Assembly: GCA_964590225.1 (NCBI GenBank)
Contig: CAZPWS010000003.1
Coordinates: 11,899-75,898, forward strand
Direction of reading: 5' to 3'
DNA length: 64,000 bases
From: an uncultured Fibrobacterota bacterium
GTDB taxonomy: Bacteria > Fibrobacterota > OXYB2-FULL-49-7 > JAEUSG01
Below, piece by piece: positions 3,750-48,200 of this stretch. The notes below the pieces were generated by a model. That model was not told the DNA's origin. It worked only from the letters and a program-made list of their open reading frames with translations, and searched no databases. Both the position numbers and the translations under genes were made by a program. Position 1 is the first letter of the stretch, and the number at the start of each line of letters is the position of its first letter.

Positions 3750-4925
3750 TCAGTATCGACAAAATCGCTGTATTGCTGCCATGATTAGCCTTATTGTGCT
3801 CAGTCGGGAACCATTGTTAACAGATCCCGCTGTTGCAAAAAGCACCCCTTTACCCTGTTTGCTTTGCTCAAAATCTCTTGAGAGTTCGAGCAGTATTTTT
3901 TCCCTTTCGTTACGCATTAATGAGTAGGGGTGCAGTTGTCCCTGTATTATGGTTTTTGGCATATGCGAGCGGATCTCGTTTACCGTAAGTGTTGGACCGA
4001 AGTTAACCTGTGTAAAATTAAGTCGAGATAACACTGGCAGGTGATGTCCCATAGGCGAATCTGAGTGTTGATATCGCCAATCGTTATCGTTCGGCGCATA
4101 CTTATCGAATATTGCCTTTAGTATTGGGTAGCCAAAGAATTCATACATTTCCTGATTAAGCATCATACAATTGTCGTCAAAAAAGGCGAAGCCATGGGGA
4201 GACTCCCCGCTGCTATATCCACTCTCTTCATCAATAACCGTTCTTATGTTAATTATTGTTGTGGTAATTAAATCGCGAAACCGCGCGGCTATAGGTTCGT
4301 TGTCAAGAATGAGCATTATTAAATCCTCGATACCATAGATGGACATTGCGAAAGTTACCGGTCCTCTCTGACCTGCATATCGCGGTGGTTTAATTCCCTT
4401 TGCAGTAAGCCTTTGTTTCTCGCTGTCCCAGTTTTCAGGAAGCATGAATGCCCGCGGGTTTTTGTTTCTCTCTTCAACTCTGTCGAGGAGTCGGGAAAGT
4501 TCGTCAACTCCGCTTGCTGATTTTTCTAACCACCAAGAACCTGCCTCCCACTTCCTTTCTGCTTCAAAGAAATCGTGAAGCATTTTGAGTTGCGGATATT
4601 TATCTGTTTGCGGAGTTTCTTTTTCGTTTAGTGGCCTCTGACCAATAATTTTTTCAGCCTTATCGTTGTATGCCTTATTCAGGCGGTGGCGAAATTCCCC
4701 GTCTGTTTCATATTTCAATAGATCGGGTTGAATCGCCAACTCATCAAAAACGCATTCCCCCTCAATATGAATTCCTAAAGCCATTGTTGCCGGATTAAAA
4801 ATTTCTCTGCGAGCAGCGCCATTTTCACTCCAAAACAGTTCGAGATTTACCTGCGCGAGTCCGTCGTTCTGATCGGCTTCTTTGATTAACAGGTCTATTT
4901 CTTTTTGGGTCATTGAATCCTCCAA
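3750..4925 (-). CDS. hypothetical cytoplasmic enzyme, possibly uroporphyrinogen-decarboxylase (URO-D)-like fold
   Basis: ORF of 391 aa with no signal peptide. The C-terminal G-rich tail (GKGVLFATAGSVNNG...) weakly resembles URO-D/MtaA-family ends. It is divergent from an AraC regulator gene. Confidence 0.25.
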   Translation of the reverse strand: MEDSMTQKEIDLLIKEADQNDGLAQVNLELFWSENGAARREIFNPATMALGIHIEGECVFDELAIQPDLLKYETDGEFRHRLNKAYNDKAEKIIGQRPLNEKETPQTDKYPQLKMLHDFFEAERKWEAGSWWLEKSASGVDELSRLLDRVEERNKNPRAFMLPENWDSEKQRLTAKGIKPPRYAGQRGPVTFAMSIYGIEDLIMLILDNEPIAARFRDLITTTIINIRTVIDEESGYSSGESPHGFAFFDDNCMMLNQEMYEFFGYPILKAIFDKYAPNDNDWRYQHSDSPMGHHLPVLSRLNFTQVNFGPTLTVNEIRSHMPKTIIQGQLHPYSLMRNEREKILLELSRDFEQSKQGKGVLFATAGSVNNGSRLSTIRLIMAAIQRFCRY

Positions 4926-4996
4926 TTGATGTATATTAGGGATTTTACAATTAATTATAGTATATACAATTTAAGGCGAATATACCATTCACGATA

Positions 4997-6019
4997 GTGA
5001 TATATGCATGTATTTTAAGGATTTTTGTAGATATGATTAACTATTATGATAGAGGGATAAACGATGGTAATGCTAATTGTGGTTTCTTTATTAAGTACGA
5101 TAATGTCACATATAAACTACGAATAAGTCATTTTTCTAAGTCAGTTTCTCGTGGCAATAAAAGGCCACATAGCCACGCCTTCTACCATGTTATCTACTAC
5201 ATTTCACAAGGTGAGCTTTTAATTGGCGACTCTATCAGAATAATGGACGGTGGTGATATTGCGCTTATATCGCCTGATCAGCCTCACTACTATGCTGCTG
5301 TTGATAATAAGGAATATTCCTACTACGAAATAACATTTGAATTTATTTCCTCATTTGGAAAGCCACTAAGAGTTTCTTTTTATGAGCTTTTTTCGATTCT
5401 TTTTCCATCTAAGGAAGTTAATGAACTATCTCCTGTATTTAATGTAGCACCGGTAAGTTTGCGGGAAGAAATGGCTTTGCTTTTTAAAAATATGCCCATG
5501 TCTCTTGAAACTATTGGCAGCAAAGGTGGCGAAATTCTATTCGGTGTAGCGCTCGAATCGTTACTTGTGAAGCTTCTTTTTATGATTGTTGATATGGCTA
5601 CAGGAATTGAAAATCCTGAAAAAAAGAAGCAGGGAGTTGTTGGAAATATTCGAGCTTATATACACTCAAATTATCAGCGCTGTTTCAGACTGCGAGATAT
5701 CGCAAAAGCATGTGGGGGAAATGAACAGCATCTTAATCGTGTTTTTAAAAAAGCAAGTGGATATAATATTATGGACTATACGAACCGCCTAAGAATTGAT
5801 ACTGCGAGAAGAATAATGGATTCAGAGGGTTATTCTGTAAAGGAAACTGCTTACATGATGGGCTTTAAGGACGAGTTCTATTTTAGCAGGGTTTTTAAAC
5901 GATATGCAGGTATCTCACCTGATGCCTTTCGAAAAAGTTTTTGCAATCATAATTTAACATTAAACAGTAACAATTTGGAGCGTTCTGCTGCTGCCGGCAT
6001 TAAATGCCCGCCCGACTAA
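4997..6019 (+). CDS. AraC family transcriptional regulator (N-terminal cupin-like sensor + C-terminal HTH)
   Basis: The C-terminus IRAYIHSNYQRCFRLRDIAKACGG...FKDEFYFSRVFKRYAGISPDAFRK is a typical AraC/XylS HTH pair. Confidence 0.7.
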   Translation: MIYACILRIFVDMINYYDRGINDGNANCGFFIKYDNVTYKLRISHFSKSVSRGNKRPHSHAFYHVIYYISQGELLIGDSIRIMDGGDIALISPDQPHYYAAVDNKEYSYYEITFEFISSFGKPLRVSFYELFSILFPSKEVNELSPVFNVAPVSLREEMALLFKNMPMSLETIGSKGGEILFGVALESLLVKLLFMIVDMATGIENPEKKKQGVVGNIRAYIHSNYQRCFRLRDIAKACGGNEQHLNRVFKKASGYNIMDYTNRLRIDTARRIMDSEGYSVKETAYMMGFKDEFYFSRVFKRYAGISPDAFRKSFCNHNLTLNSNNLERSAAAGIKCPPD

Positions 6020-7366
6020 CATAACGGCAGTGTCTCCTTTTGTTAAAAATCTGTTTCTTAAAACATGTGCTATGCCCGATTTAATCAGTTTATCTAACTG
6101 ACGCACAGGAGGTATCCAGTGTGAACGAATACCCCATACCAGACAAAGCTGATTTACGGTGGCTTGCTCTGGAGATAAGGCAATTATCGGACTTTCTTTT
6201 CGCTGGTACGCAGCAAGTCTGGCGATGTTGCCACTTTTTGAAAAAACTATTATTGCCTTTCCGCTAATTTTGTCGCACGCATTAACTGCGGCATCTGCTA
6301 AAGCGAGCTCATGTGATATTCTATCGGTATTTGACGAGTAATTAATGGAGCCATTACGGACTGCTTTCTCAGCTGCCATAGCTATTCTTGCCATCATTTC
6401 AACACTTTCAATCGGATATTGTCCGGCTGCCGTTTCTGCCGAAAGCATAAGCGCATCCGAGCCGTCATATATTGCGTTAGCGACATCAGATGCTTCTGCT
6501 CTTGTTGGAAAAGAGTTACTTATCATCGATTCAAGCATTTGTGTGGCAGTTATAACAAAGCGGTGTTTTTGGCGGGATAATTTTATGATTTGTTTTTGTA
6601 TGGCTGGCACTTCTTCTGGTGAAAGCTCAACTCCAAGGTCACCGCGAGCTATCATTATTCCATCGGCCACTTCAATTATTGAATTTATATTTGCAACAGC
6701 TTCGGGTTTTTCAATTTTAGCAACTACCATGGTCTTGCTTTTTGTTTTAGCAATGAGTTTACGGAGAGCTAAAATATCCGGCGCACTCCTTACAAAGGAT
6801 AGTGCTATAAAGTCAACGCCTAATTTTAATCCTAATTGCAGGTCGTCTCTGTCTTTAGGCGTAAGGCATGGTGCGGATACTTTTGTTCCTGGGAGATTAA
6901 TGCCTTTATGGTCGGATAAGGTTCCCCCTACTTCCACCGTTGTTATTATGTCGCGATCTTTAACGGCCATTACTCGCAGGCGGATTATGCCATCGTTTAG
7001 GTATATGGCCTCTCCAATCCTAACATCCTTTGGCAGCGAGGAGTAATTGACAGAAACAATGTTTTCGTCTCCGCTGATGGCCCTTGTTGTCAAAATAAAA
7101 CGGAATCCCTTATGGAGTTCAATTTTCCCTTTCAAAAATTTTCCTATCCTGATTTTTGGCCCCTGAAGGTCGAGCAAAATGGCAATGGGTACTTTTAATT
7201 GCTTCGCAACTTTACGGATCAGATTGTAGTTTTTTGTATGTTCAGCATGTGTTCCGTGTGAAAAGTTAAGGCGAAATGCATTTGCTCCTGCCTTTATGAG
7301 TTCTGCTATCATGTTTTCAGAAGAAGATGATGGTCCTATTGTGGCAAGAATTTTTGTGTGTCTCAT
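5960..7366 (-). CDS. pyk: pyruvate kinase
   Basis: N-terminus MRHTKILATIGPSSSS...NFSHGTHAEH and overall length and architecture are those of pyruvate kinase. Confidence 0.85.
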   Translation of the reverse strand: MRHTKILATIGPSSSSENMIAELIKAGANAFRLNFSHGTHAEHTKNYNLIRKVAKQLKVPIAILLDLQGPKIRIGKFLKGKIELHKGFRFILTTRAISGDENIVSVNYSSLPKDVRIGEAIYLNDGIIRLRVMAVKDRDIITTVEVGGTLSDHKGINLPGTKVSAPCLTPKDRDDLQLGLKLGVDFIALSFVRSAPDILALRKLIAKTKSKTMVVAKIEKPEAVANINSIIEVADGIMIARGDLGVELSPEEVPAIQKQIIKLSRQKHRFVITATQMLESMISNSFPTRAEASDVANAIYDGSDALMLSAETAAGQYPIESVEMMARIAMAAEKAVRNGSINYSSNTDRISHELALADAAVNACDKISGKAIIVFSKSGNIARLAAYQRKESPIIALSPEQATVNQLCLVWGIRSHWIPPVRQLDKLIKSGIAHVLRNRFLTKGDTAVMLVGRAFNAGSSRTLQIVTV

Positions 7367-7376
7367 GATATGTGCG

Positions 7377-8561
7377 CTAAAAGTTTAATTGAGCAAATTT
7401 TATGTACTGCTCCCAGTCATAAAGCTTGAGTGAATGGCCGCCTTCTTTAATATGATACCCCAGTTTGTTATCATGACTGACAAGCGGTGTGTTGATGGGA
7501 GGAAGCTCTGTTTCGGTGAGTCCGGCAATACCAAAAAGTTTATACACCGGTTCTGCCGCTTTTAACGAATAAAATTCATCCTCCGGCGCTACCTCTGTAT
7601 CGATTTCCGCGCTGCCAACATAGAGCGGACGGGGAGCAATAAGTGCGAGCAGCTCATGTTGGTCAACGGGCATAGTCTCTTCCTTGTCCTCGTAAGCACG
7701 GTAATTTGCACAAAACCAGTGTGGGAATACACGGTTTATGTCTTTCACTCTCTCCCCCCGTTTTGCCCTTGCAAGCATCGCCCCTGTACAACCAGATTCG
7801 TTGCTAATAACAATGGCAAATCTTTCATCCTGAGCACCGCACCAGAGAGCGGTTTTACCGCCCCGTGAGTGGCCTATCACTGCTACCCTTTTTTCGTCAA
7901 TATCGGCATCTGTCTCAAAGTAGTCCATTGCACGGCTTCCACCGAACGCCCATGCTGCTATTGTGCCCCATAGATCGGGTGGCCGTTTACCCTCTTCAAA
8001 GTTTTCAAAAATCGCGTGGATTCCTCCCTTAAACTTATCATCCTTATCCATGTCTATTTCCTGCAAAATAAGGCGTGCCGCGACAAAGCCATTATCAACA
8101 ATTTTTTCTGCCGGCCAATATTCGTTGTTAATTAGACGGTTCATTTCAAGTGTATAGTGTTCAAGTGGATTTCTGTGGTCAAGCAAAAGAAAGCAGGGGT
8201 GGCTTTTTTTGCCGTTTTTAGGCACAAACAGCAATAGAGTAAACGAGGTAATTCCACGCGGTCCTCTTACTGTAATTCTCACCTGTTTGCGGACAGCCTT
8301 GTTATCCATGGCTGCTTTATCCGATTCAACAAGAGAAAAGCTTACATCTGATTTTTTGACAAGAGGAGATTTGCCATAGATGTGTCGGCTAAAAAGTTCA
8401 AGAATTTCTGCTCTACGAATTGATATCCAGCCATTTTTATCGATAGCTTTACCGTTGTTATCAATAAGTGGGGTGGGCAGGGTCGATAGGTATTGAAGTG
8501 ATTGCATGTTGTTCACTTTTTTCTTACCTCCATAATAACAGCTAAGTGTAATAATACGCAC
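7377..8561 (-). CDS. alpha/beta hydrolase, CE15 glucuronoyl-esterase-like
   Basis: GHSRGGK nucleophile motif followed by ESGCTGAMLAR. This parallels the G-C-S-R-x-G ... ESGAGGAACWR block of CE15 4-O-methyl-glucuronoyl methylesterases. About 390 aa. Confidence 0.5.
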   Translation of the reverse strand: MRIITLSCYYGGKKKVNNMQSLQYLSTLPTPLIDNNGKAIDKNGWISIRRAEILELFSRHIYGKSPLVKKSDVSFSLVESDKAAMDNKAVRKQVRITVRGPRGITSFTLLLFVPKNGKKSHPCFLLLDHRNPLEHYTLEMNRLINNEYWPAEKIVDNGFVAARLILQEIDMDKDDKFKGGIHAIFENFEEGKRPPDLWGTIAAWAFGGSRAMDYFETDADIDEKRVAVIGHSRGGKTALWCGAQDERFAIVISNESGCTGAMLARAKRGERVKDINRVFPHWFCANYRAYEDKEETMPVDQHELLALIAPRPLYVGSAEIDTEVAPEDEFYSLKAAEPVYKLFGIAGLTETELPPINTPLVSHDNKLGYHIKEGGHSLKLYDWEQYIKFAQLNF

Positions 8562-8644: not shown

Positions 8645-9760
8645 ATGGGCTATTTTAATTCAGAACTTATATCGTCGGACTCCCTATGGCAGATGACATT
8701 CATTGTCTTAGCCATTTTATTCGCCGGGCTTTTATTTGTTTCGTTTATCGCAATTTTTAAACATTTCCAGAACAATAAGATTAGCAATACTATGATGCTT
8801 CTTCAACCGCGCTTTGATCAGCTTGTTCTGGACGGGCGCGAGGGGCGTTACGATAGAGGGATAATAGTGGCTTTAATTTGTACCAAGCATTATCCCTATT
8901 TTGAGCGATTTCTGCGAAATCGTATTGCTTCCATTGATTCGCTGGATGTTTCGGTAGAGCGGAAATTGTCTGAGATGTCTGGTTTTACAGAGTGGACAAG
9001 AAAAAGGGCAAATACTTCAAGGGGGTGGCGCCAAGCTAATGCATTGCGTACCCTCTCTTATTTGCGAGACAGTCGCGATGCAGATATTTTCAGACATGCG
9101 CTTTCATCAAAGTTTTTCCAGAGCCGGTTTGTGGCAGCCATCGGCTTATCGCTGATCTACGATTCCGGGGCCATACCACTAATTATTAAAGCTTTGTCAA
9201 CTTCGGAACAGCCGCATCGTGATCTTCTATTGACCGTTTTGTCACCTTTAGTTCATTGCGCCGCTCCTTTGATGACTGAGCTTGTAATGGACAGTAGTAC
9301 AAGCGAACCTGTGCAATGTGTCCTAATAGACATACTGCGAGAGTCGGGGTATAAAGAGGCTTTTTTAGCTTTAAAAGAGAAGCTTTCTGTACCTAATGAA
9401 GATGAATTAACCATCCACCTGATTGAAGCGATAGGTATGCTTGGGCAGACAGGGGATGGTGCGTTTCTTCAAAGATGGGTGCAGCACGAAAATCCGTCTA
9501 TCCGTGTCAAGACAATTACGGCAATCAGTAAGCTTGATGGCGAAAAAGCTCTTCCTATAATAGAGCTGTATATGGAAGACAAATCATGGTGGGTAAGGCG
9601 TGCAGCGGCAGAAGCCCTTTACCGTATGGGAGGGATTGGACTCGCCAGGCTTAAAAAATTTGGAGAAGGTCCTACCGGTACATTTGCATCCGATGTAGCG
9701 CGCCTGATACTTGCCGAGGTCGAATTTGGCAGACTTAAGGGAGAACCGGTACATGCTTGA
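8645..9760 (+). CDS. inner-membrane HEAT/PBS-lyase-repeat protein (1 N-terminal TM); first gene of EPS module
   Basis: N-terminal TM (FIVLAILFAGLLFVSFIAIF). Repeated alpha-helical HEAT-like units (...WWVRRAAAEALYRMGG...). Its stop overlaps the start of the next gene (ATGCTTGA). Confidence 0.5.
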   Translation: MGYFNSELISSDSLWQMTFIVLAILFAGLLFVSFIAIFKHFQNNKISNTMMLLQPRFDQLVLDGREGRYDRGIIVALICTKHYPYFERFLRNRIASIDSLDVSVERKLSEMSGFTEWTRKRANTSRGWRQANALRTLSYLRDSRDADIFRHALSSKFFQSRFVAAIGLSLIYDSGAIPLIIKALSTSEQPHRDLLLTVLSPLVHCAAPLMTELVMDSSTSEPVQCVLIDILRESGYKEAFLALKEKLSVPNEDELTIHLIEAIGMLGQTGDGAFLQRWVQHENPSIRVKTITAISKLDGEKALPIIELYMEDKSWWVRRAAAEALYRMGGIGLARLKKFGEGPTGTFASDVARLILAEVEFGRLKGEPVHA

Positions 9761-11174
9761 TTTCTTCCTTGTCTTTCTGGGTGGTTTTAATCTCTTTATT
9801 TTATTCTATTTTATTTCGCTCAATCTTTTTTATACGGCTCTGATCTTTATTGCCTCTTTTGCAGTTTCGCGATATAACAACGAATATTTACTACACAGAG
9901 GGATAAGGTTGCCTCTAAAATTTATTAAGCCCTTCTCTCTTTTGATTCCTGCGTATAATGAGGAGGCGGTGGTTGTAGAATCTGTGAACTCGTTACTCTC
10001 GCTCGATTTTGAGGAATATGAGGTAATTGTCGCTAACGATGGCTCTACCGATGATACGCTTGATAGGTTGATTAAAGCCTTTAAGTTGGAAGAAGTCAAT
10101 ATTGCAATTCAGGTGCGGTATCCTTCCAAACAGATCAGGAAGGTTTATTTTTCACGAAAAGAGCCACGACTAATTGTAGTTGATAAGGAAAATGGAGGAA
10201 AGGCGGATGCTCAGAATGCGGCAGCTAATGTGGCCCGCTATCCTTATGTGGGAGCTGTTGATTCGGATTCTCTGTTGTCGCACGACTCAATGCGAAAGCT
10301 GATGGCGAGATTCGCGGCTCAGCCTAACTTTGTTGGTGTCGGTGGTATTGTTAGGCTCTCTAACGGCTGTCGTATTGAGAATGGAAAGATATTGAGTGTT
10401 AAGCTTCCGGGAACATTAATTGAAAATGTTCAGGTTGTTGAGTACTTGAGGGCATTTCTATATGGCAGGATGGGATGGGCTCACCTTAATATACTTATGA
10501 TTATTTCTGGCGCTTTTGGAGTTTTCAGACAGGATGTTCTTGCAAAGGTGAGTGGCTGGAATCCAAAGGCATTAGGGGAGGATATTGATATCGTCCTTAA
10601 AATGCACCGTTATATTCATGAAGAAAAGAAACCTTTTGCACTTGGTTTTGCTCCCGATCCGGTTTGCTGGACACAGGCACCGCACAGCCTTAAAGGGCTT
10701 TCCGTTCAGCGGGATCGTTGGCAGAGGGGATTAATGCAGACACTTTTTTATAATATCAGGATGTTCTTTAATCCAAAGTACAGGCAGATTGGATTGGTAG
10801 GATATCCCTATTTTTTTATTTACGAAATGATGGGAGGTCTTTTAGAATTTCTCTCATATCCAATTATTATTATCTGCTTTTTGTTGGGTCTTGTGAATAC
10901 GCCATTCTTTGTTCTGTTTATGTCGATTTCGCTTGTTTGGGGATTATGTGTTACAGTAATGTCTATCGCACTTGAGGAAACTTCTTACAGGCGTTACGAC
11001 AAGACGGGTGATTTTATCAAGTTGTTTGCTGCCGGTATTATAGAGAATTTTGGCTACCGTCAGCTTCACTCATGGTGGCGCGTTAAAGGTTTTTTTAAGC
11101 ATATTTTTGGCGTAAAGAGTGGATGGGGGGCAATTCCCAGAGTCTCTTTTTCAAATGAAAGAGCGAAGACATGA
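9753..11174 (+). CDS. processive family-2 glycosyltransferase (PgaC/IcaA/BcsA-like polysaccharide synthase)
   Basis: LIPAYNEE...VIVANDGSTDDT, a DSDS (DxD) motif, and QRDRWQRG, which is the Q-x-x-R-W motif of processive GT2 synthases. Two N-terminal and about four C-terminal TM helices, as in PgaC. ATGA overlap with the downstream gene. Confidence 0.75.
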   Translation: MLDFFLVFLGGFNLFILFYFISLNLFYTALIFIASFAVSRYNNEYLLHRGIRLPLKFIKPFSLLIPAYNEEAVVVESVNSLLSLDFEEYEVIVANDGSTDDTLDRLIKAFKLEEVNIAIQVRYPSKQIRKVYFSRKEPRLIVVDKENGGKADAQNAAANVARYPYVGAVDSDSLLSHDSMRKLMARFAAQPNFVGVGGIVRLSNGCRIENGKILSVKLPGTLIENVQVVEYLRAFLYGRMGWAHLNILMIISGAFGVFRQDVLAKVSGWNPKALGEDIDIVLKMHRYIHEEKKPFALGFAPDPVCWTQAPHSLKGLSVQRDRWQRGLMQTLFYNIRMFFNPKYRQIGLVGYPYFFIYEMMGGLLEFLSYPIIIICFLLGLVNTPFFVLFMSISLVWGLCVTVMSIALEETSYRRYDKTGDFIKLFAAGIIENFGYRQLHSWWRVKGFFKHIFGVKSGWGAIPRVSFSNERAKT

Positions 11175-12319
11175 AACAGCATATCTCTATTATTGTTCTA
11201 TTGCTTTTTATGCTTTCTGTGAGTGAAGTTTCGCTTAAAGGCGCTTCCGAACTCCGTAATGTCGGCCGTATAGAGGAGGCTTTGATAATATACGATTCCC
11301 TTATACAAATAAATAGCAAGGATTCAGATGCCTTGATTGCACGAGGATTTTGCAGATTGGCGGTTTCCCGTGTCGAGGAGGCCTATGCTGATTTTAAGAC
11401 TGCGATCGATATATCAAGTGATTATGTTGATGGTTATATTGGCATGGCTTTGGCCGCAAAACGAATGAACCATTTTGAATTAGTTGATTCATTAATAGCT
11501 CTTGCAATAAATACCTGCAATAGCGATAAATCAAAACTGCTCACGCTCCAGAATCAGCTTTGGGAGGTCGGTTTTTATAGTCAGGCACGAAAACTTTCTG
11601 CAGTATTTGCTGCGGAGGGTAATCGGGTTTGCTATCTAAAGGTAAATAGCGCTTTTGTTGCGCTGGGGTATGATCTTATTGACAATGGGGGTAATTGGCG
11701 TGCGATTGAAGGGGGGGCATTACTTGGAGTTCGTCCGGATTGGTCGCTTGGGGCGGTAGCAGGTAGTTACGAACGAAACGGTATAATCAACTCTCGGCTC
11801 TCGCTTTCTCCATCTTATAGACATACTTATCGGTTAAGTGGTGCATATGAGCTATCGGTTGCTTATCCAGAACGGTTCTTGCCATCAATATCACAAAAGA
11901 TACTGCTAAGTTATTTGGTAAGAGCAAACATAGTGGCGGAAGTTGGCGTAACTGCAGCCAAATATGATAATGGATGGGTCCGTTTAGGAATTATAGGGAG
12001 TGAATTTAACCATCATGCAGCATCTATCAGGTATCAACTGTCGGCAGGATTGGACAATAACAACGATAACATAATGACTCAGATGGCTGCGATTGGTTAT
12101 GCTGTTTCTCAAAAGTCAAAAATTACAATTGGTGGAGCGATTGGCAGCGAGACTGTTGATAAACTCGCGTACATCGCATCAGAAAAAGTGGCGTCGATCT
12201 ATTCTGTTGTTGCGTTCCCCTTGTTCTTTAGAGTAGGCATGGTAGTGTCGCTTGCAGAAGAGTGGCGCGACAAAAATCCTTTTCGCACGACTTTTTCGCT
12301 TTCCATTATTTATCGATAG
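11171..12319 (+). CDS. signal peptide + TPR repeats + C-terminal beta-barrel-like domain (mini PgaA/BcsC-type outer-membrane exporter)
   Basis: Signal peptide (IIVLLLFMLSVSEV). TPR-like helices (ALIARGFCRLAVSRVEEAYADFKTAIDI...). The C-terminal roughly 230 aa are Gly/Ser/Tyr-rich with an alternating hydrophobic pattern typical of beta strands. Confidence 0.45.
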   Translation: MKQHISIIVLLLFMLSVSEVSLKGASELRNVGRIEEALIIYDSLIQINSKDSDALIARGFCRLAVSRVEEAYADFKTAIDISSDYVDGYIGMALAAKRMNHFELVDSLIALAINTCNSDKSKLLTLQNQLWEVGFYSQARKLSAVFAAEGNRVCYLKVNSAFVALGYDLIDNGGNWRAIEGGALLGVRPDWSLGAVAGSYERNGIINSRLSLSPSYRHTYRLSGAYELSVAYPERFLPSISQKILLSYLVRANIVAEVGVTAAKYDNGWVRLGIIGSEFNHHAASIRYQLSAGLDNNNDNIMTQMAAIGYAVSQKSKITIGGAIGSETVDKLAYIASEKVASIYSVVAFPLFFRVGMVVSLAEEWRDKNPFRTTFSLSIIYR

Positions 12320-13012
12320 ATAAGATTGCAGTTGGTGGAGGAGCTTACGCCATTGGGTTAATGAGCGGCATTAATAATCTTCTTGGCGCGCTCTATTCTT
12401 TTCCTGGTGGATATCTTGCTGATAGGATTGGAATAAAAAATCTCTGCTTGTTTTTAATATGATGGCTGCTACAGGGTATATGATCGTAGTGCTTGTTCCA
12501 ATATGGCAAGCAGTTATTATTGGTTCATTTTTGTTTCTTTCGCAAAATGGGGTGAAAGAGAAGGAATAAGATATTCATTTATAGTGACATCAATAGAAAT
12601 GGTAACTGCTATTTTAATTTACATTCCTGTTGCATATCTTGCTGATAAGGGTTCTAAAAAGCCTTTTGTTATAATTACATTCGGTTTTTTCACCGTTTTC
12701 CCATTGGTATTGCTATTTAGCAATTCATATAGCGCATTGATTGTTGCCTTTATCTTCCGAGGTCTTAAGGAGTTTGGCGAACCGACCAGAAAAGCGTTAA
12801 TTATGGATCTTGCGCCGGAGGGAGAAAAAGCTTCGGCGTTCGGTCTTTACTACCTTTTAAGGGATGTTGCTGTATCGGTAGCAGCATTTGGTGGAGCTTT
12901 TTTATGGTCTATAAACCCATCTGTTAATCTTATTTCCGCGTTTTTCTTTGGCCTTGTGGGGACTATCTGGTTTGCTATTTACGGGAAAGATGTTAACAAA
13001 GCGGCGACTTAA
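12262..13012 (+). pseudogene. decayed MFS transporter gene (two out-of-frame fragments, N-terminal helices missing)
   Basis: Fragment 12262..12462 carries MFS motif A (GLMSGINNLLGALYSFPGGYLADRIG). Fragment 12503..13012, in another frame, carries the second-half motif (FRGLKEFGEPTRKALIMDLAPEGEKASAFGLYYL) and C-terminal TMs. Together they are far shorter than the roughly 400 aa of an MFS protein. Confidence 0.45.
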
Positions 13013-13200
13013 CAAAAATAAGTCACGAATAGGAAAAAAGTTTAGCGGTCACAACTCTTTTGCCCATTTAATTCTTAAAGTAAAAGCTGTTGTTAAAGTC
13101 AAAGAGTTTTAATTTCAATATTTTCAATGGCTTGTGACCTTACTTAAAGTGTTTAAACAACTCAAATTGTGGCACTTAATTTGCGTTGTAAGTAGCTACT

Positions 13201-13761
13201 ATGTCTGCATTCAGGGTAACCCCAAGCGCTCAACACATTCAATCTGCTTATGATCGTGCGCTTGTATTTGATAGAATGAAAAAAAAGAGCGAAGAGGAGA
13301 GAGCTGCAGAAAGCGCATCAAAGATTGATACAGTTGTTAAAGATTCTTATAAAGATGTAACTACCACTTCTTCGTATCTTCCTGTTGATAAACCAAAACC
13401 TAATACGGTTCCTTTTAAGCCTGGTTTTGTGTTTGAATATGGCCGTGGTACAGAAGGAGGGGGGGTTACTGTTACTATCACAGATGTTGATAGGGTTAAA
13501 ATCGAGATGGAGTCGAATGCCATGACAGATGACCGGAAAAAGGCGGTCAAGTCACTTGTCATGCTGGGACTTGGAAAGATAAACAGGGAGGATCTTAATA
13601 AGGCAACTTCCGATGGAAGGCAATCGGTTGAAACAATTAAAAAAGAATTGTCTTATATGGGGCTTAAGAGTGATATCCCCTTTGGGCTTGGCGAGGATTC
13701 TTTTTATTTCGACTTTGCCAATTTGCTCCGGCAATATAAATCCATAGATGTCAATGGCTAA
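13201..13761 (+). CDS. hypothetical protein; its last about 35 codons are duplicated at 19279..19396
   Basis: ORF of 186 aa with no recognisable motif. The 3' end lies inside direct repeat copy A. Confidence 0.35.
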   Translation: MSAFRVTPSAQHIQSAYDRALVFDRMKKKSEEERAAESASKIDTVVKDSYKDVTTTSSYLPVDKPKPNTVPFKPGFVFEYGRGTEGGGVTVTITDVDRVKIEMESNAMTDDRKKAVKSLVMLGLGKINREDLNKATSDGRQSVETIKKELSYMGLKSDIPFGLGEDSFYFDFANLLRQYKSIDVNG

Positions 13762-14029: not shown

Positions 14030-14902
14030 ATGTCAAAAATACTGAATGTGTATGCAAAAATATCCAAGCTCCGTGAGCGCTATTATGTTTCCATTAAGGG
14101 AAAACAATCACTTTTAGGTCTGCTCTCAGACAATGAAGTTGCAGAACAGGTTTATAACTCTAATGCTATAGAAAATAGCACTCTTACCTTAGAAGAGACG
14201 GAAAAAATTCTTCTTCAGATTGATCTGGATAGATACATTACAGAAAGAGAAATTTTTGAAGCAAAAAACCTCTCTCGTGTTGTTTCTTACATTGATAAGA
14301 AAGCTAAAGAGCAGGAGCTTGATCTGGACATGATATTGCTGCTGCATAAAATGCTTATGTCAAATATCAGGGATGATGTAGCCGGCAGGTTTAGAAAAGA
14401 GGGAGAGTGGGTAAGAGTTGGAAACCATATAGCTCCAGATTCTAAATTGGTGCATGGACTGCTTGAAAATATGATAACTGAATACAATGCCCATAGCAGC
14501 GAAAATATCATAAAACGGATAGCGCTCCTTCATCTTACATTTGAAAACATTCATCCTTTTGTTGATGGAAATGGCCGTATTGCCAGGGCATTAAACAATT
14601 ATTTGCTCATTCGAGAAGGTTTTGTACCAATTAGCATAAAGTTTATTGATCGAAAAATGTATTATAATGCTTTTCAGCAGTTTGATAAAAATAACTCAAT
14701 GTCAATAATGGAGTCTATAGTTGGTCGGGCGCTTGCAAACAGCTATCACAAGAGGCTTGCATATCTGGAAGGTAAGAGCATAATTACGCTTAAAGAATAT
14801 GCAAGAAGCAGCAAAATGTCATACTCAAACTTGCTCAACAAGGCAAACCGTCAAACAATTGAAGCGTTTATTGAAAAAGGTGTTTGGAAAATAGGCGAGT
14901 AA
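14030..14902 (+). CDS. Fic/DOC family protein (AMPylator-type)
   Basis: HPFVDGNGRIARAL matches the Fic active-site motif HPFx(D/E)GNGR. The length (290 aa) is typical. Confidence 0.8.
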   Translation: MSKILNVYAKISKLRERYYVSIKGKQSLLGLLSDNEVAEQVYNSNAIENSTLTLEETEKILLQIDLDRYITEREIFEAKNLSRVVSYIDKKAKEQELDLDMILLLHKMLMSNIRDDVAGRFRKEGEWVRVGNHIAPDSKLVHGLLENMITEYNAHSSENIIKRIALLHLTFENIHPFVDGNGRIARALNNYLLIREGFVPISIKFIDRKMYYNAFQQFDKNNSMSIMESIVGRALANSYHKRLAYLEGKSIITLKEYARSSKMSYSNLLNKANRQTIEAFIEKGVWKIGE

Positions 14903-16236: not shown

Positions 16237-17166
16237 ATGAAAATAAATTGCTTTAATATCAATTTCTTCATATCTTTGCATAGAAGGAATGGAGAAAAAA
16301 TGATACCTTGCATATTCGATTATACCGACTATAAGAAATATCTGGCAGAGCTTTATAAGGTAAGGAAGGCCGAGAATAAGGGGTTCTCGTACAACGCCCT
16401 TTCTATGCGTGCGGGATTTAAGAACAAGGGCTTCATTTACAATGTTATAAATAGCAATAAGCGGTTATCCAAAGAAAGTACAATAAAACTTTCTATGGCG
16501 CTTAATCATAATAAACAGGAAACTGAATATTTCGAAAATCTTGTTTTTTTTAACCAGGCCGAAGAGCTCAAAGAGCGTAACTACTATTATGAAAAACTGA
16601 TTGCAGTTAAACCATGCAAGCAAAATGTTGGCGAAGCATACAAACTTATGCAGGATCAATATGCGTATTACTCCGATTGGCGAAACAGCGCCATCCGCTC
16701 GTTAATTGGCCTATATCCATTTAAAGATGACTATGCATGGCTCGCAAAAAGTCTCTATCCTCGGATAAAACCTAAAGAGGTAAAAAAGTCTATTCAGCTA
16801 CTGGAAAATCTTGGACTCATCAAAAAGGGTAAAGACGGAATTTACAAACTCGCTGAAAAACATATTACAACTGGCAAAGAAGTTACAGGTCTTGCAGTGC
16901 AAAACTTCCACAAAGCGTCTGCGATACTTGCATCGGAAGCAATAGCTAACCTGCCCAAGAGCAAGCGAAACATCACGGGAATTACGCTTGGTATTTCAAA
17001 AAAGACCTACACACGAATATGTGAAGAGATTGCACAATTTCGTAGTCGTATTATCGATCTTGCAGATTCTGACGAAGGGGCTGATCGCGTGTATCAGCTC
17101 AATTTTCATTTTTTCCCCATTTCAAATATTGATAACCAACTTTCTAAAACAGGAGATAAGGTATGA
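16237..17166 (+). CDS. TIGR02147-like (Fibrobacter succinogenes paralogous family) putative HTH protein
   Basis: MIPCIFDYTDYKKYLAELYKVRKAENKGFSYNALSMRAGFKNKGFIYNVI resembles the N-terminus of the Fibrobacter TIGR02147 family. The likely true start is the internal Met at 16300. Its stop overlaps the start of the next gene (ATGA). Confidence 0.45.
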   Translation: MKINCFNINFFISLHRRNGEKMIPCIFDYTDYKKYLAELYKVRKAENKGFSYNALSMRAGFKNKGFIYNVINSNKRLSKESTIKLSMALNHNKQETEYFENLVFFNQAEELKERNYYYEKLIAVKPCKQNVGEAYKLMQDQYAYYSDWRNSAIRSLIGLYPFKDDYAWLAKSLYPRIKPKEVKKSIQLLENLGLIKKGKDGIYKLAEKHITTGKEVTGLAVQNFHKASAILASEAIANLPKSKRNITGITLGISKKTYTRICEEIAQFRSRIIDLADSDEGADRVYQLNFHFFPISNIDNQLSKTGDKV

Positions 17167-32624: not shown

Positions 32625-34766
32625 TTATTTCATTAGCATTACTCTCTTGAGCATTGTTCTTTCTCCAGTCAGGACTTTTACCAAATAAAGTCCGGAAGGC
32701 ATTCCTGTTGCATTCCAATCAGCTCTATTTCCCCGTAGAGAGTTTGTTAAATCTACAATTTTTTGTCCGCTAACTCCATATATGCCTACCTCTCTGATAT
32801 AACTTATTTCGTGCAGTACAATATTTATGGCGGGGTTGAATGGATTTGGCGTTACTGTTAAATATGGCATTTTCCCTGAGCTAACAGAAGCAGCATCATT
32901 CGAAGTTGTTCCCCCACCACCGAAGGCCTCGCGGGTATCGTATGCAACGAGGTCGATATCAACCCCCTCCTTGGATATAATAATCAAGTAGTTAATATAT
33001 CCTCTTATGTTAAGATTAAGTCCATTATCTGTCCGTAGCTCGATAGTATCAGTAGTTATGCTTTTTGTTGTTTTATTTGTGGTGAATTTTACAAGGGTGT
33101 CGTTTCCGTCGCCGGAAAGCTTTTTTACAAGAGGATCATCATCCAGTCTAAGAAGGCAAGTTTTGCCACTCAAGTATTCGCCCATACAAACTTTTATAAT
33201 GTAGTCACCGTCGGGTATGTTAAGCTTAAAGGTTCCTTCATCGTATTTTGCCCAAGCTCCTGGAGAAACAGCCGTGCTTCTGATAAATAAACTATCATGG
33301 AAATCAATCATATTTCTATTTATGGACAGATTGCTGCTGCTCGGTTTATTTACGGTCCAGCCATAGCCCCGCACTGGATCGTAAACTCTGTTCCATTCTG
33401 TATCCCAGTGTTCACTGAACATGGTGTCGTATGGCTGGAAATTGATTCTTCGTATTACGGATAGTTTTTGGGCCATAACAAAGGCAACAGAATCTGTTTT
33501 GCCATCTTTTTCTATTCTTAAAACCATGTCACCGCCCTCTGCACCAATCCTCTCAAGGTAACCGTTTGTCACTTTAAATTGTGTAGTGTCGCTCGATAGC
33601 CACTCAACAGCACCATCAAGATTGGTTATAAAACTCTGATCTCCCTTAGTAAAATATCCATTTGCTGTGAACTTGAATCCGTTTTCGACATATCCGGTTA
33701 TCTGTTTTGGTGTAATTGCCACTGAATCCAGAATAGCTGTGCTTGGTACAATATCAACTGAGAGCGTCTCCCTTTCTGTTTCGCGCCAAACTTCGATGCA
33801 TGCTCTGCCAATCTCTTTTGCTGTTACAGTTCCATAATAATCAACCGAAGCGATGCTTGGTGTAAGCGATGAATATACTGCGTTTACCGAATTGCTTTCT
33901 ATCGAGTCGTTTTCGTAGATAAAGTCAACATTAATTTTAAAAGACAAATATCTCTCAATCGATGAGATATTGTCCGAAAGGTCTATGCGTTTTACCCTCA
34001 CTGGCTCCGCTGTCCACGGAGGCAGATTACTTTTCATCCGTTCAGTCATTGTGACATTCCACGCTACTTGCTGTATAAAGTGTTTTGTAACTGAATCAAC
34101 AAGTGGGTTAGGATTAGCAATTCTTCCCGTAGGATTTTCGCGGAATAGTGTTGCAACCCAGACGCAGGCAGCAAGATATTTTTGCCATTCGGTAGGATGG
34201 GTTCCATCTGATGTGACTCTAAACCCTTTTTTAACAAGTTCCTGAGAACCGACTGCCACAGGTGAGGCATATACAAAGCTGGGTTCAGCCAATTCGAAAT
34301 TAACCTCATTAAGTGTATCCTGCATATTCACCGACCATTCTCCGTTAGCTTCAGTAAAAATAAGCGGTGCTACTGTGCCCTGCATTCTTCGCATCCACAA
34401 TATTGGAATTGACCCCACGCTATCAATTATGCGCGCCAACTCTCGTCCTGTTGCAATGTAGTTTGCTTTATAGGTTTCGTACGAACCGGTTGGATTATAC
34501 AGCGCCATCATTTCCACATAATGAAAAACACCACTCCTGATTGTATCCATTAACGATGTATCTCTCAAAACAGCCTCCCATGAAGTTGTTTTTGGGGCGT
34601 AGTAGTATTTGACGGGAATGCCCCGTTCGGCGGCAAATTTTTTGACATCTTCGGGGGTTTGTGCTCTTGAGCTGCTGCCAAGCCAGCAAATATTTATTGT
34701 GTCTGCTGCATGCAAGCTAAGTGCCAAGAAGAAAACAAGCAAGATTGTTTTTGCTTCGGATTTCAT
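32625..34766 (-). CDS. secreted protein with Ig-like (Big_2) domain and T9SS C-terminal sorting domain
   Basis: Signal peptide. A Big_2-like stretch (AVYSSLTPSIASVDYYGTVTAKEIGRACIEV). C-terminus VTPNPFNPAINIVL...WNATGMPSGLYLVKV, typical of Por secretion tails. Confidence 0.5.
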   Translation of the reverse strand: MKSEAKTILLVFFLALSLHAADTINICWLGSSSRAQTPEDVKKFAAERGIPVKYYYAPKTTSWEAVLRDTSLMDTIRSGVFHYVEMMALYNPTGSYETYKANYIATGRELARIIDSVGSIPILWMRRMQGTVAPLIFTEANGEWSVNMQDTLNEVNFELAEPSFVYASPVAVGSQELVKKGFRVTSDGTHPTEWQKYLAACVWVATLFRENPTGRIANPNPLVDSVTKHFIQQVAWNVTMTERMKSNLPPWTAEPVRVKRIDLSDNISSIERYLSFKINVDFIYENDSIESNSVNAVYSSLTPSIASVDYYGTVTAKEIGRACIEVWRETERETLSVDIVPSTAILDSVAITPKQITGYVENGFKFTANGYFTKGDQSFITNLDGAVEWLSSDTTQFKVTNGYLERIGAEGGDMVLRIEKDGKTDSVAFVMAQKLSVIRRINFQPYDTMFSEHWDTEWNRVYDPVRGYGWTVNKPSSSNLSINRNMIDFHDSLFIRSTAVSPGAWAKYDEGTFKLNIPDGDYIIKVCMGEYLSGKTCLLRLDDDPLVKKLSGDGNDTLVKFTTNKTTKSITTDTIELRTDNGLNLNIRGYINYLIIISKEGVDIDLVAYDTREAFGGGGTTSNDAASVSSGKMPYLTVTPNPFNPAINIVLHEISYIREVGIYGVSGQKIVDLTNSLRGNRADWNATGMPSGLYLVKVLTGERTMLKRVMLMK

Positions 34767-45245: not shown

Positions 45246-48200
45246 TTATCTGCCCTCCGCCTTTGCGATTTTAAAGATGCGTTCAATGTTCCCTGTTTTG
45301 CCTTTAGCGCTGAATTTAACATAGTAAGTTCCGTTGGGGAGGAGTCGTCCATTTTTATCGGTTGCGTCCCAGGCAATTTCCTGATATCCGAGAATGTTTC
45401 GTGCCGAAAGAGTTTTTGCAAGGTATCCGGCAAAGGTGTATATACGAAGCTCCACATCAGCTTCATCCTCTATTGTAAAAGCGAAAATGGTTTTTCTGCC
45501 GAACGGGTTGGGATGGTTGGCAAAACTCCTTAAGGCCAAGCGAGAGCTAAGAGTAAAACCGACTTTCATTGTATCGGAACGGTTATTGTTGATATCTTTC
45601 GCCACAGCGTAAATGGAATCACTTCCTTTCCTGAATGGACGGAACGAAACAACTGCATTTCCAGCTCCGCCGGAATGGCCCACAGAAAAGCGATCACGAG
45701 ATAGAGGAAGCATGCCTTGAGTGAACAGCTGTATTGTTGAAGTGTCAACTGCGGAATTATCCTCAAAAAGGATGTCAATGGGAGCACCGGTTGGAATAAA
45801 GTCTGGAAAATCGAGATTTCGTCCGGCGGACATCGCTCTTATTGTTGGCCCCTTTGCGTCAGTTGTGTATCCAGGCGTATAAAACATTCCGGTCTTAACA
45901 ATGGCGGATACTGTTGCTGTTAACGAATCAATAGTTCCTTCGATAAAATGCCAGTAGGATGATATTGTATCGAGTCTGAAAAAACCATATCGGTTGGTTT
46001 GGCTGGTGTTAGCTTGTTGATTTGATGAATAAACTTGATAGGAAAATATAATGTCTGATGATGGTTTTTCTGAGGCTGCAAATACTGAGTATGTTAAAAC
46101 AGAATCAGATCCAAGTGGCCTAACTTCATTCTGATAAGGTCGCAGGGTGGTTGCAATGTCAGCCTTTTCCTGAAAAAGTGTTATTGGTATGGTGTCGAGT
46201 TTTCTGACTGTTTTTACCGAAAGCCCTCCGTAAGGAGCGGTTGAAACAGTATCGAGCTTGCCAAGTATTGTACCACGGATTCCAATCAATTTCTGGGCTA
46301 TGTTGTTACCTTTATCGCTTTCAAGTATGTTGTTGCTGTTGTCAAGATGTGCCTGCAATAAAAGATATCCATCCGCGTTAATAATTGGAAAATCCAGAGA
46401 GTCAATGGCTTTGGAGGGCAAGACAGAATTATATGGGAGTGTCATTGCATTTAAGCCATTTATAGAAAGTGCAACGGTGAATGGCGAGGCATCTGACAAG
46501 CCTTGGTTTATAAATCGGAGGCGAGCTACAAGGCGGCCGGCAAGCATTGGTTTAATGGCATCTTTGAGTAGAAAGGCAAGATCTGGCGGTGTTTTAATTT
46601 TACAATGGAAAAATCTTCGCAGCAGTCTGGTAGTATTATCTGCTGTTCGATATTTAACGCTTATACAATAGGTAATGCCTCGTTTGGTGCCATAGACTGC
46701 CGGCGAGAGGAATATCGCTCCTGAGATGAATTTGCCGTTACCGAATAACATTTCTATTCTGCTCGACGGAAGAACAGATTCATTTATGGCCGTATCAGCT
46801 TCGTAATAGAGAGTAACGGAATCTATCGTGAATCCGTTTGGGTTTTTAATTTCACAGCTAATCCGTATCGAATCACCAAGTGAGTATGTTGATTTAATTA
46901 TAGTATCACGGTTTGTTGATAAAATGAATGGTAAAGCAGATGAAACTGTGATCTGTCCGGTTGAAAACGGTATTTCACCTACACTTATTTTGTTGCCACT
47001 TGTTAGTATGGCACGAATAAGCCCGTTCGGATAATCTCTGCCTGGACGAAGGGGCACAAACACTGTGTCGGTTTTTCCATTGAACGGAGTGGAGTGTTGT
47101 AGGCTTAAGAGGTCATCTTCTCCATATATTCTAATTGTTATTTCTCCATGAGTTGCAGTTGCCGCGCTTACTTTGATATGCAGAGAGTCGCCGGCAAGCG
47201 GCGTTGGGTTGAGAAGAGTCAAATCGTCAAGTTTTCCCGGGTATGCAATTGGCATGGAAGGGTCGCCAAGAAGATTGTATTGGGCAATAACATGAAAGTA
47301 GCCGGCACCGTAAGCAGCTAACATGTTCTCTTCGGCAGCGTTTATTAGCCCCCCAACGGTTTTATGCACTTTTGAGGCGGCTTCGGTGAGAATAATTTCA
47401 CTAAGCAGCTTGTCTGATATTGTAAACGAATGTCCAGACGCACCATAGAAAGCGGCACATCCCCCTTTGTCTGAAAGTAGCATTGTTTCGCCCAACGGAG
47501 GAAATAGGTCTTGAGTTAATCCTTCAGATACCGCCTCAAATGAGGCAGTAAGACAGGTCAAGCTGAATACTATCGGGAGCACGCCAGCATTAGAGAGAGA
47601 TTTTGCTGACGAGTTGTCCATCATTGGAAGAGGGCGACCGTCTGACCAGATGCTGCCACCACCGTGCCCAAAGAAAAAGGTGAAGAGCGCTCCTTTGTTA
47701 AAAAACGATGAAACTGCTGTTTGTGTCGCCGTGCCAAAAAAATAGTCGGATGTGGGGTCGGCATCGGCACGAACCACATTGAATGTTGGCGAAATTATTT
47801 CTCTGTGAAAAATGTTATTGGCAGATGTAAATATGTTCTCATAGCCTCCAATAAGGAAGAAATTATTTCTCCAAGTTCCTGCGTCCGGATTGTTTTCGAA
47901 CCTTTGTATTTTTATAAGAACATCTCTTATCTCTTTAACGCTTCTGCCTGGAATTCTTCCCACTGCAATATCTGGAAAAATATCATCGCCATAGACAGTA
48001 GTTAAGCGACTATCTGCGCTTGCTATACCCCAACCGTTAACCTGCGTGAAGAGAGTTGGAACTATGTTTCGCCCTCTTTCTCTTTTATCCGAAAGCTCAG
48101 AGGCATCTCCGAGAATAAGCAAATAGGCCGGTTTAGGGTTAAAGGAGGTGTATGCATGGGCGATATACTCTTTTATAGAGATGGGATTTACAGAGCCATT

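Follow-up and report, generated by a model that had tools for sequence, protein, structure and literature searches.

A HEAT-repeat, GT2 and YaiO-type barrel gene module from an uncultured Fibrobacterota bacterium: a candidate synthase-dependent polysaccharide system with a new type of membrane partner

Our analyses of a 64-kb stretch of DNA from an uncultured Fibrobacterota bacterium (64,000 nucleotides, hereafter the window) support the interpretation of three adjacent genes at positions 8645-12319 as a single operon for a synthase-dependent extracellular polysaccharide. A membrane glycosyltransferase of family 2 (GT2; gene 2) would act as the synthase, a HEAT-repeat membrane protein (gene 1) as its co-synthase or adaptor subunit, and a tetratricopeptide repeat (TPR) and beta-barrel protein (gene 3) as the export porin. 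We assign this interpretation a probability of about 0.6. The argument that follows is based on results computed directly: the structure of the genes, their domain families and catalytic motifs, the folds predicted for genes 1 and 3, and the conservation of the gene neighbourhood.

To our knowledge, the textbook synthase-dependent systems i.e. those for cellulose, poly-N-acetylglucosamine (PNAG), alginate, Pel and Nfr, are all activated by cyclic di-GMP (c-di-GMP) and draw on a small set of known partners. The family to which the window module belongs keeps a PgaC-like synthase, has a membrane protein with HEAT repeats in place of the known partners, and is in most cases linked to genes of two-component phosphorelays. 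Relative to the described synthase-dependent systems, what is new in this family is the type of partner, the link to regulatory genes and the smaller class of porin; nothing sets the window copy apart from other members. If the interpretation is true, polysaccharide secretion would gain a regulatory logic and a type of subunit that are both new, and the YaiO barrel family would gain a role as minimal export porin. Besides that, a compact three-gene cassette would be easy to use for heterologous expression and structural work, and an unrecognised matrix polymer would exist in many environmental and gut anaerobes, the probable Fibrobacterota source of the window among them.

Gene structure and predicted products of the module

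The three genes lie on the same strand and overlap at both junctions. The 8-nt overlap ATGCTTGA between genes 1 and 2 is read as translational coupling, in line with the first-pass annotation of this DNA, which had proposed three coupled genes from this overlap and from the ATGA shared by genes 2 and 3. A Shine-Dalgarno-like AAGGGAG is located 9 nt 5' of the gene 2 ATG, and an alternative gene 2 start, a TTG at 9711, was judged less likely. The features of the module are the following, with coordinates in the window:

8645-9760, + strand: gene 1, open reading frame (ORF) for a HEAT-repeat protein of 371 aa, inner-membrane, proposed co-synthase/adaptor subunit
8693-8764, + strand: N-terminal transmembrane (TM) helix of gene 1, residues ~17-40, the sole strongly hydrophobic segment (hydropathy)
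8972-9724, + strand: HEAT/PBS-lyase-like alpha-solenoid of gene 1, residues ~110-360, with ~8 helical hairpins (Pfam, AlphaFold2, Foldseek)
9753-9760, + strand: overlap ATGCTTGA of the gene 1 stop (TGA, 9758-9760) with the gene 2 start (ATG, 9753-9755), read from the sequence
9753-11174, + strand: gene 2, ORF for a membrane-embedded GT2 synthase of 473 aa, counted from the ATG at 9753
10260-10268, + strand: DxD motif of gene 2 (D170-S-D172), invariant in 34 family members
10578-10583, + strand: ED motif of gene 2 (E276-D277), invariant in 34 family members
10707-10724, + strand: QRDRWQ (QxxRW) motif of gene 2, residues 319-324; Q319, R320, R322 and W323 invariant in 34 members
11171-11174, + strand: overlap ATGA of the gene 2 stop with the gene 3 start, read from the sequence
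11171-12319, + strand: gene 3, ORF for a TPR and beta-barrel protein of 382 aa, secreted, proposed export porin
11234-11605, + strand: TPR domain of gene 3, periplasmic, residues ~22-145, about four repeats
11639-12313, + strand: 14-strand beta-barrel of gene 3, residues 157-381

Gene 2 matches the Pfam families Glycos_transf_2, Glyco_tranf_2_3 and Glyco_trans_2_3 above cutoff. In its hydropathy profile, residues 1-39 and 344-412 stand out as hydrophobic blocks, and the C-terminus extends ~60 residues past the last TM segment without an extra domain. The motifs DGS(T)D, DxD, ED and QRxRW are invariant among the 34 family members and all catalytic residues are kept in gene 2; the ED motif corresponds to 'TED', which supplies the catalytic base in processive GT2 synthases, as established for BcsA and hyaluronan synthase (HAS). 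The subfamily is further characterized by full-length identities of about 40% or more and by the signature [IV]VVDKENG and PDP[VI]CWT[QE], present in the window copy as IVVDKENG and PDPVCWTQ.

The best NCBIfam match of gene 2 is PgaC_IcaA (TIGR03937), with 145.4 bits, and the protein shares 29% identity over 309 aa with E. coli PgaC (E 2e-30). A profile built from 64 members of the GT2 family matches E. coli PgaC with 130 bits over profile positions 29-407, a span including the membrane region that follows QxxRW; the same profile scores 53 bits against YaiP and 16.6 bits against NfrB. When a 34-member profile was compared with the sequences of the PDB, BcsA was matched over the ED/QxxRW/membrane region (residues 254-383, 1.6e-13) and the Chlorella-virus hyaluronan synthase over residues 18-347 (8e-9). 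The PgaC match over nearly the full length, the BcsA and HAS matches and the motifs together place gene 2 in the membrane-integrated processive-synthase class, nearest to PgaC, which agrees with its earlier description as a PgaC/BcsA-like GT2 with QRDRWQ and flanking TM helices. By sequence comparison, it is a distant full-length relative of PgaC and not a PgaC orthologue or equivalog. We also considered, and rejected, an identity as a polyprenol- or dolichol-phosphate GT2, the grouping that had been named at the outset as the one that would speak against a synthase: the DPMS, GtrB-like and ArnC structures align to the N-terminal nucleotide-binding (Rossmann) part alone (profile positions ~50-135), and gene 2 possesses the QRDRW motif and the membrane region.

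Gene 1 proved to be the single-TM HEAT-repeat protein that had been described, with matches to HEAT_2 (56.3 bits, cutoff 27.7) and HEAT (34.3 bits, cutoff 23.5) in Pfam and one hydrophobic segment. Its AlphaFold2 model, for which the alignment comprised five usable homologues only, is all-alpha (predicted local distance difference test, pLDDT, 73.9) and is confident for residues ~110-360; the best Foldseek matches of this model were alphaRep (consensus bacterial HEAT-like repeats), armadillo/importin proteins and the phycocyanin lyase CpcE/F. No enzymatic signature was found in the solenoid, which the modelled fold would characterize as a generic protein-binding scaffold, and a motif conserved in the family, WWVRxxAAxAL, occupies residues 315-325. 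Of 65 HEAT proteins of the family, all but one (64) possess the N-terminal TM helix, and among these 64 the number of lysine and arginine residues is higher after the helix than before it in 61. This positive-inside bias predicts an N-out/C-in orientation, with the HEAT solenoid in the cytoplasm. Comparison of gene 1 with PgaD and YbcH, through the HEAT family profile, revealed no similarity (E. coli PgaD was not matched), and the NCBIfam search returned no model specific to gene 1 or to gene 2.

Gene 3 begins with a hydrophobic signal without cysteine, and its TPR matches in Pfam are weak. The AlphaFold2 model (pLDDT 88.8; predicted template modelling score, pTM, 0.80) consists of nine helices followed by 14 beta strands, and its structural matches are BcsC, PelB, PgaA and 14-strand porins. 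The first-pass annotation had regarded this protein as a miniature PgaA or BcsC; the architecture of TPR domain plus barrel bears this out, whereas the barrel itself, with 14 strands instead of 16-18, had to be reassigned to the YaiO type. A word-seeded search with gene 3 found gene 3 itself alone and one gene 3 family profile added one relative, and the family came to light when 1.8 billion representative sequences were searched exhaustively with HMMER. The relatives are full length, mostly of 390-410 aa, some being longer through additional TPRs. Among 15 aligned members, 12 match TIGR04390 and eight match PF19413 (YaiO). Against TIGR04390 (cutoff 32) the scores were 43.4 bits for P0012, 55.5 for P0014 and 46.6 for the orthologue in the Verrucomicrobia locus L011 described below, over approximately the whole 230-position model, and the matched region of the close homologues aligns to gene 3 residues ~155-382. 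The alignment of the gene 3 family to the single E. coli YaiO sequence is weak (hhalign probability 4.9%), and its assignment to YaiO is thus based on the curated models that match the homologues. The PgaA model TIGR03939 gave no match to gene 3.

Distribution and gene neighbourhoods of the HEAT-GT2 pair

A two-sequence GT2 alignment was used to scan contigs representing one genome per species, which returned at least 572 relatives. The best 80 loci, with 38-54% identity, were kept, and neighbourhood counts were obtained by comparing custom HMMs of the three proteins with all the ORFs of these loci. The bacterial taxa include Verrucomicrobia, Bacteroidota, Ignavibacteria, Acidobacteriota, Gemmatimonadota, Nitrospinota, Gamma- and Betaproteobacteria, Clostridia and other Bacillota, Actinomycetota and Bipolaricaulota, and the HEAT-GT2 pair spans more than 10 phyla. 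In 77 of 81 loci a HEAT protein is encoded directly upstream of the GT2 and ends within ~20 nt of its start. Among the four exceptions, three have a contig end at the GT2 start, and the fourth shows an overlapping match outside the distance criterion. The HEAT proteins are far more divergent than the synthases (median pairwise identity of 19% versus 45%), and the pairwise identities of the two proteins correlate (r=0.84), a pattern that joint inheritance of two partners would produce.

The first three weak homologues of gene 1 are in keeping with this arrangement: two lie directly upstream of an overlapping same-strand gene that runs off the end of its contig, and P0004 (locus L008) lies directly upstream of a homologous GT2. 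A receiver gene stands in front of two of the three, and a gene for a 392-aa TPR protein precedes the third. A further candidate relative, P0007, was discarded as a generic HEAT match in an unrelated neighbourhood. Among the matches listed, the module closest to that of the window belongs to a Verrucomicrobia metagenome-assembled genome (MAG; L011) and is fully collinear with it, the full-length identities being 30% for the HEAT protein, 54% for the GT2 and 28% for the TPR-YaiO protein.

In 23 loci a gene for a TPR plus YaiO-type barrel protein adjoins the pair on either its upstream or its downstream side, and 23 of the 27 outer-membrane proteins adjoining the pair match TIGR04390. The co-conservation of the trio that the first-pass annotation had anticipated is thus observed, for the HEAT protein nearly throughout and for the barrel in a part of the loci; none of the three outcomes that this annotation had listed as refuting its reading, among them a gene 3 product without predicted barrel, occurred. 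The same annotation had deemed the HEAT partner unusual, which stands relative to the systems described in the open-access literature; within this GT2 subfamily, in contrast, such a partner is the rule. The porin-bearing loci are from diderm bacteria or carry no phylum label, except for two MAGs automatically labelled 'Eubacteriales', and in the best 80 loci no YaiO-type porin was found beside the pair in Clostridia, Bacillota, Actinomycetota or archaea. In the two 'uncultured Eubacteriales' MAGs with a YaiO-type porin (L014 and L036), the gene order of the former is that of the Saccharicenans loci L013 and L058, and both labels are probably wrong.

Additional genes accompany the pair in particular lineages. 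An LtaS/OpgB-like 'sulfatase' membrane enzyme of ~800 aa is encoded near the module in nine loci (including L023, L035, L062, L071, L073 at 10702-13089, L075 and L093), and in L030 (11060-13516) an LtaS/OpgB-like enzyme is fused to TPRs. By analogy, the recurrence of these enzymes suggests a phosphoglycerol- or phosphoethanolamine-type decoration of the polymer in some lineages, BcsG providing a comparable decoration for cellulose. A protein of ~730 aa without Pfam or NCBIfam match occurs beside the pair in 11 loci, nearly all of them from Firmicutes (including L018, L024, L026, L047, L064, L067, L068 at 4595-6787, L078 and L088), and may be a monoderm-specific extracellular partner. In an Anoxymicrobiaceae MAG (L022, 3909-7625) the GT2 ORF continues for ~760 residues without Pfam match, which may represent a fusion to a further domain or a long-open-frame artefact of high-GC DNA.

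Replicons of cultured organisms show the same associations, where the public annotation of the pair consists of generic names only. Plasmid pMESCI01 of Mesorhizobium ciceri (RefSeq) carries, in this order, a kinase, two response regulators, a YaiO family barrel protein, a HEAT repeat protein, a GT2 and an Hpt protein. On a plasmid of Haloarcula halophila (NZ_CP119560.1; L092, 23702-26649) the order is PAS kinase, response regulator, HEAT, GT2 and GAF kinase, and on pEMTOL05 of Emticicia oligotrophica it is response regulator, hypothetical protein, GT2, hypothetical protein, YaiO and a lipoteichoic acid (LTA)-synthase-family protein. Archaeal clusters of receiver, HEAT and GT2 genes occur on haloarchaeal plasmids and in a Methanomicrobia MAG (L092, L054, plasmid matches H6 and H9), flanked by PAS/GAF histidine kinases.

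A stand-alone receiver (REC) gene is located upstream in ~46 of the 80 loci, and in the loci checked it is accompanied by genes for histidine kinases, hybrid kinases or Hpt proteins. The REC proteins keep the canonical acidic pocket, the phospho-acceptor Asp, the Thr and the Lys (D/D/T/K). REC is an optional part of a REC-HEAT-GT2(-YaiO porin) cluster, and none of the three module proteins matched PilZ, GGDEF or MshEN domains; the regulatory theme linked to the family is that of receiver and phosphorelay genes, not of c-di-GMP components, a theme absent from the first-pass annotation. A precedent for a receiver acting on a HEAT protein is reportedly offered by the Che7 system of Myxococcus xanthus, in which CheY7 is said to act on the PBS-lyase-like HEAT protein Cpc7. 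The presence of the HEAT protein even where no receiver gene adjoins, as in the window, makes a structural or activating core role more likely than a purely signal-receiving one.

Several observations weigh against the interpretation of the module as a polysaccharide synthesis and export operon. The TIGR03937 score of gene 2 is far under the PgaC equivalog cutoff of 422.3, and membrane GT2s with QxxRW include non-processive lipid glycosyltransferases, so that the processivity of gene 2 is a predicted property. The 14-strand barrel of gene 3 is smaller than the 16-18 strands of known polysaccharide porins; gene 3 itself has no match to the YaiO models TIGR04390 and PF19413 at E<=0.1, and since its homologues do exceed them its YaiO membership is transitive. 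The protein ends in SLSIIYR (window 12290-12319), versus an aromatic F in most relatives, the C-terminal aromatic F being the usual outer-membrane-protein signal. A recognisable adjacent YaiO porin is present in only about half of the diderm loci. Finally, no ORF for a module-type REC was found in the 64-kb window at E<=1e-3, and the proposed regulation may consequently not apply to the window copy.

Some of these points would be explained if gene 2 were a non-processive membrane glycosyltransferase acting on a lipid or another acceptor, comparable to the QxxRW monoglucosyl-diacylglycerol synthases, with the HEAT protein as its regulator and gene 3 unrelated or only loosely linked. The low PgaC score, the small TM complement (the two hydrophobic blocks), the diderm loci without a recognisable adjoining porin and the monoderm and archaeal modules without a dedicated export partner all fit such an enzyme. 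However, the family aligns with PgaC near full length, including the region after QxxRW where BcsA and HAS are matched too, porins of PgaA/BcsC/PelB architecture are coupled or adjacent to the pair in the 23 loci mentioned above, and LtaS/OpgB-like polymer-modifying enzymes recur nearby. We therefore consider this explanation quite improbable.

Alternatively, the module could be a divergent Pga/Ica system making poly-beta-1,6-GlcNAc, in which the HEAT protein would be a non-essential regulator and no new machine would be involved. PgaC_IcaA is indeed the best named match of gene 2, the identity to E. coli PgaC is 29%, and the logic of a synthase combined with a TPR porin is the same. On the other hand, the module contains no PgaD homologue, no PgaB-type deacetylase and no PgaA-equivalog porin, the score in the PgaC model is about one third of its cutoff, the HEAT protein co-occurs strictly with the synthase across phyla, and the linkage is to receivers rather than to c-di-GMP. 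We regard a divergent Pga system as unlikely, and retain an operon with a HEAT co-synthase or adaptor subunit as the preferred interpretation.

Genomic setting of the window copy

The module had been described as accessory in appearance, located between a CE15-like gene and a remnant of a major facilitator superfamily (MFS) gene, and as devoid of deacetylase or hydrolase. Both statements held on inspection: no deacetylase or hydrolase domain was found in or adjoining the module by ORF list and Pfam, and the two flanking genes are the following:

7377-8561, - strand: CE15-type glucuronoyl esterase gene, divergent and outside the module (GCE_fung, 1.4e-29)
12322-13012, + strand: MFS transporter pseudogene abutting the end of gene 3 (three-frame translation; MFS_1 match on the last fragment)

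The MFS pseudogene is truncated at its 5' side, starting within TM2 at motif A (GGYLADRIG), and contains two frameshifts over three frames. It marks a rearrangement or insertion boundary, which suggests that the MFS gene was lost through the arrival of the module or through a deletion. In the loci examined, the neighbourhood comparison showed that the CE15-type esterase is not kept beside the module in other genomes, and none of the other neighbours of the module in the window is conserved either. The truncated, frameshifted MFS gene and the non-conserved neighbours thus support an accessory, rearranged location. Promoter and terminator scans around the module performed no better than on shuffled sequence, and the repeat search detected no direct or inverted repeats flanking it that would point to a mobile element. 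The GC content of the module (42.7%) compared with that of the window (42.1%) gave no sign of a foreign origin by composition.

Such surroundings raise the question of whether this copy was acquired horizontally and is now a non-functional remnant in decay. It adjoins a frameshifted and truncated gene, it lacks a receiver or kinase, and gene 3 is without the terminal aromatic residue typical of the family. Against this, the three ORFs are intact and of full length relative to their homologues, the catalytic residues are kept, the coupling overlaps are preserved, identical copies of the module proteins occur on contigs of several samples, and the GC content is close to that of the window. We consider decay very improbable, and the preferred interpretation of an operon for polysaccharide synthesis and export is maintained for this copy.

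The window is chromosomal and holds carB, pyrG, lnt, a fumarase gene and hydF. A Fic-domain protein is encoded at 14030-14902, just 3' of the MFS remnant, adding to the accessory look of the region, and an ORF of 186 aa without family match lies 5' of the Fic gene (13201-13761). A GAF-GAF-GGDEF diguanylate cyclase is encoded at 905-2737, ~6 kb upstream of the module, with no evidence in the window of a tie to it. Other genes of the window encode a protein with a type IX secretion system (T9SS) C-terminal sorting domain (32625-34766); a strong match (279.8 bits) to TIGR02147, the Fibrobacter 'Fsuc_second' paralogous family (16237-17166); and a C25 (gingipain-family) peptidase of 1538 aa with a FlgD_ig-like tail (45246-49865). 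The first two are markers of the Fibrobacteres-Chlorobi-Bacteroidetes (FCB) group; they agree with an origin in Fibrobacterota without proving it, and the peptidase is a further taxonomic hint.

Proposed mechanism and comparison with described systems

In the mechanism that we propose, gene 2 would be an inner-membrane processive GT2 of the PgaC class, polymerising a nucleotide sugar in the cytoplasm and threading the chain through its own TM region. The similarity of gene 2 to PgaC suggests, by analogy, that the polymer is possibly a beta-linked homopolymer of N-acetylglucosamine (GlcNAc) or glucose. Gene 1 would be the obligate partner of gene 2, contributing a single N-out/C-in helix and a cytoplasmic HEAT solenoid. 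In Pga and Ica systems, the helices of PgaD and IcaD join the TM bundle of PgaC and IcaA; the helix of gene 1 may likewise pack against the small TM bundle of the synthase, and the solenoid would then serve as scaffold or adaptor at the cytoplasmic face. A stand-alone receiver, once phosphorylated, probably docks on the solenoid in most relatives, which would place the synthase under phosphorelay control rather than under that of c-di-GMP. The periplasmic TPR domain and the 14-strand YaiO-type barrel of gene 3 would then carry the polymer across the outer membrane, in the manner of a miniature PgaA, BcsC or PelB. We infer the export of the polymer, the contact between HEAT protein and GT2, the docking of the receiver and the identity of the polymer.

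Within this widespread family the window copy represents the diderm version in minimal form, without adjoining receiver, modifying enzyme or hydrolase. A broader proposal, which we put forward tentatively and hold to be somewhat less than an even bet, is that the HEAT-GT2 pair represents a widespread and ancient class of polysaccharide machine, distributed over at least 572 species and more than 10 phyla and reaching the haloarchaea, in which the HEAT protein would be obligate, the docking of a phosphorylated receiver would gate the activity, and in diderms the 14-strand YaiO-type TPR porin would be the smallest known export channel for a polysaccharide. Such a machine, under phosphorelay control, would be the counterpart of the Pga, Bcs, Alg, Pel and Nfr systems, which c-di-GMP gates.

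Among the systems that may be compared with the module, the operon xagABCD of Xanthomonas is centred on a GT2 and is needed for biofilm formation (PMC3609779, PMC8042644); it is likened to the module by description only, as a GT2-centred biofilm operon. In iron-oxidising bacteria, an XagB-like gene adjoins a BcsB-like gene (PMC4643136), which points to a set of partners different from that of the module. No description of a HEAT/PBS-lyase partner of a GT2 synthase was found in the open-access literature, where xagABCD could be compared by its description only; the mentions of 'HEAT repeat' in a lipocone paper and in a Xanthomonas genome paper concerned unrelated contexts and were discarded. 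As for the HEAT protein, CheY7-Cpc7 of M. xanthus resembles the family in that a stand-alone receiver is reportedly encoded beside a HEAT/PBS-lyase-like protein, whereas Cpc7, unlike gene 1, is not known to be membrane-anchored or paired with a glycosyltransferase, and the window copy has no receiver.

With the Bcs and Pel systems the module shares the QxxRW/TM region of gene 2, which resembles that of BcsA, and the fold of gene 3, which matches BcsC and PelB. It differs from them in having no BcsB, no PilZ and no equivalent of PelD, PelE, PelF or PelG, in its much smaller size, and in its 14-strand porin. The E. coli NfrB-NfrA-YbcH system is similar as a compact system of membrane GT2 and TPR/beta-barrel outer-membrane protein, according to annotation; however, NfrB has a C-terminal c-di-GMP-binding domain absent from gene 2 and shows hardly any similarity to the GT2 family, NfrA has 990 aa versus 382 aa for gene 3, and the Nfr system has no HEAT protein.

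A YaiO-family barrel encoded beside a membrane GT2 is also found in the yaiS-yaiP-yaiX-yaiO cluster of E. coli K-12 (NC_000913.3, 380069-384616; L010), which comprises a deacetylase, a membrane GT2, an acyltransferase split by the insertion sequence IS2 and an outer-membrane barrel, in that order. This cluster looks like a cryptic synthase-dependent polysaccharide cluster disrupted by an insertion sequence, and no exopolysaccharide role for it or for YaiO-family porins was found in the open-access literature. YaiP is distant from gene 2 (28% identity over the GT-A core) and YaiO, unlike gene 3, has no TPR domain; furthermore, the yai cluster includes a deacetylase and an acyltransferase and lacks a HEAT protein.

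With PgaABCD and IcaADBC, the module has in common a membrane GT2 that is homologous over almost the whole length and shares the DxD, ED and QxxRW motifs, a small membrane partner encoded beside the synthase and, in diderms, an outer-membrane component composed of TPRs and a beta-barrel. The partner of the module, in contrast, is a single-TM protein with a cytoplasmic HEAT solenoid of ~330 residues, whereas PgaD and IcaD have two TM helices, and the module has neither a PgaB/IcaB deacetylase nor a PgaD-like ORF. Its barrel is of the 14-strand YaiO type versus the 16-strand barrel of PgaA, and the module family is linked to receivers, kinases and Hpt proteins rather than to c-di-GMP components.

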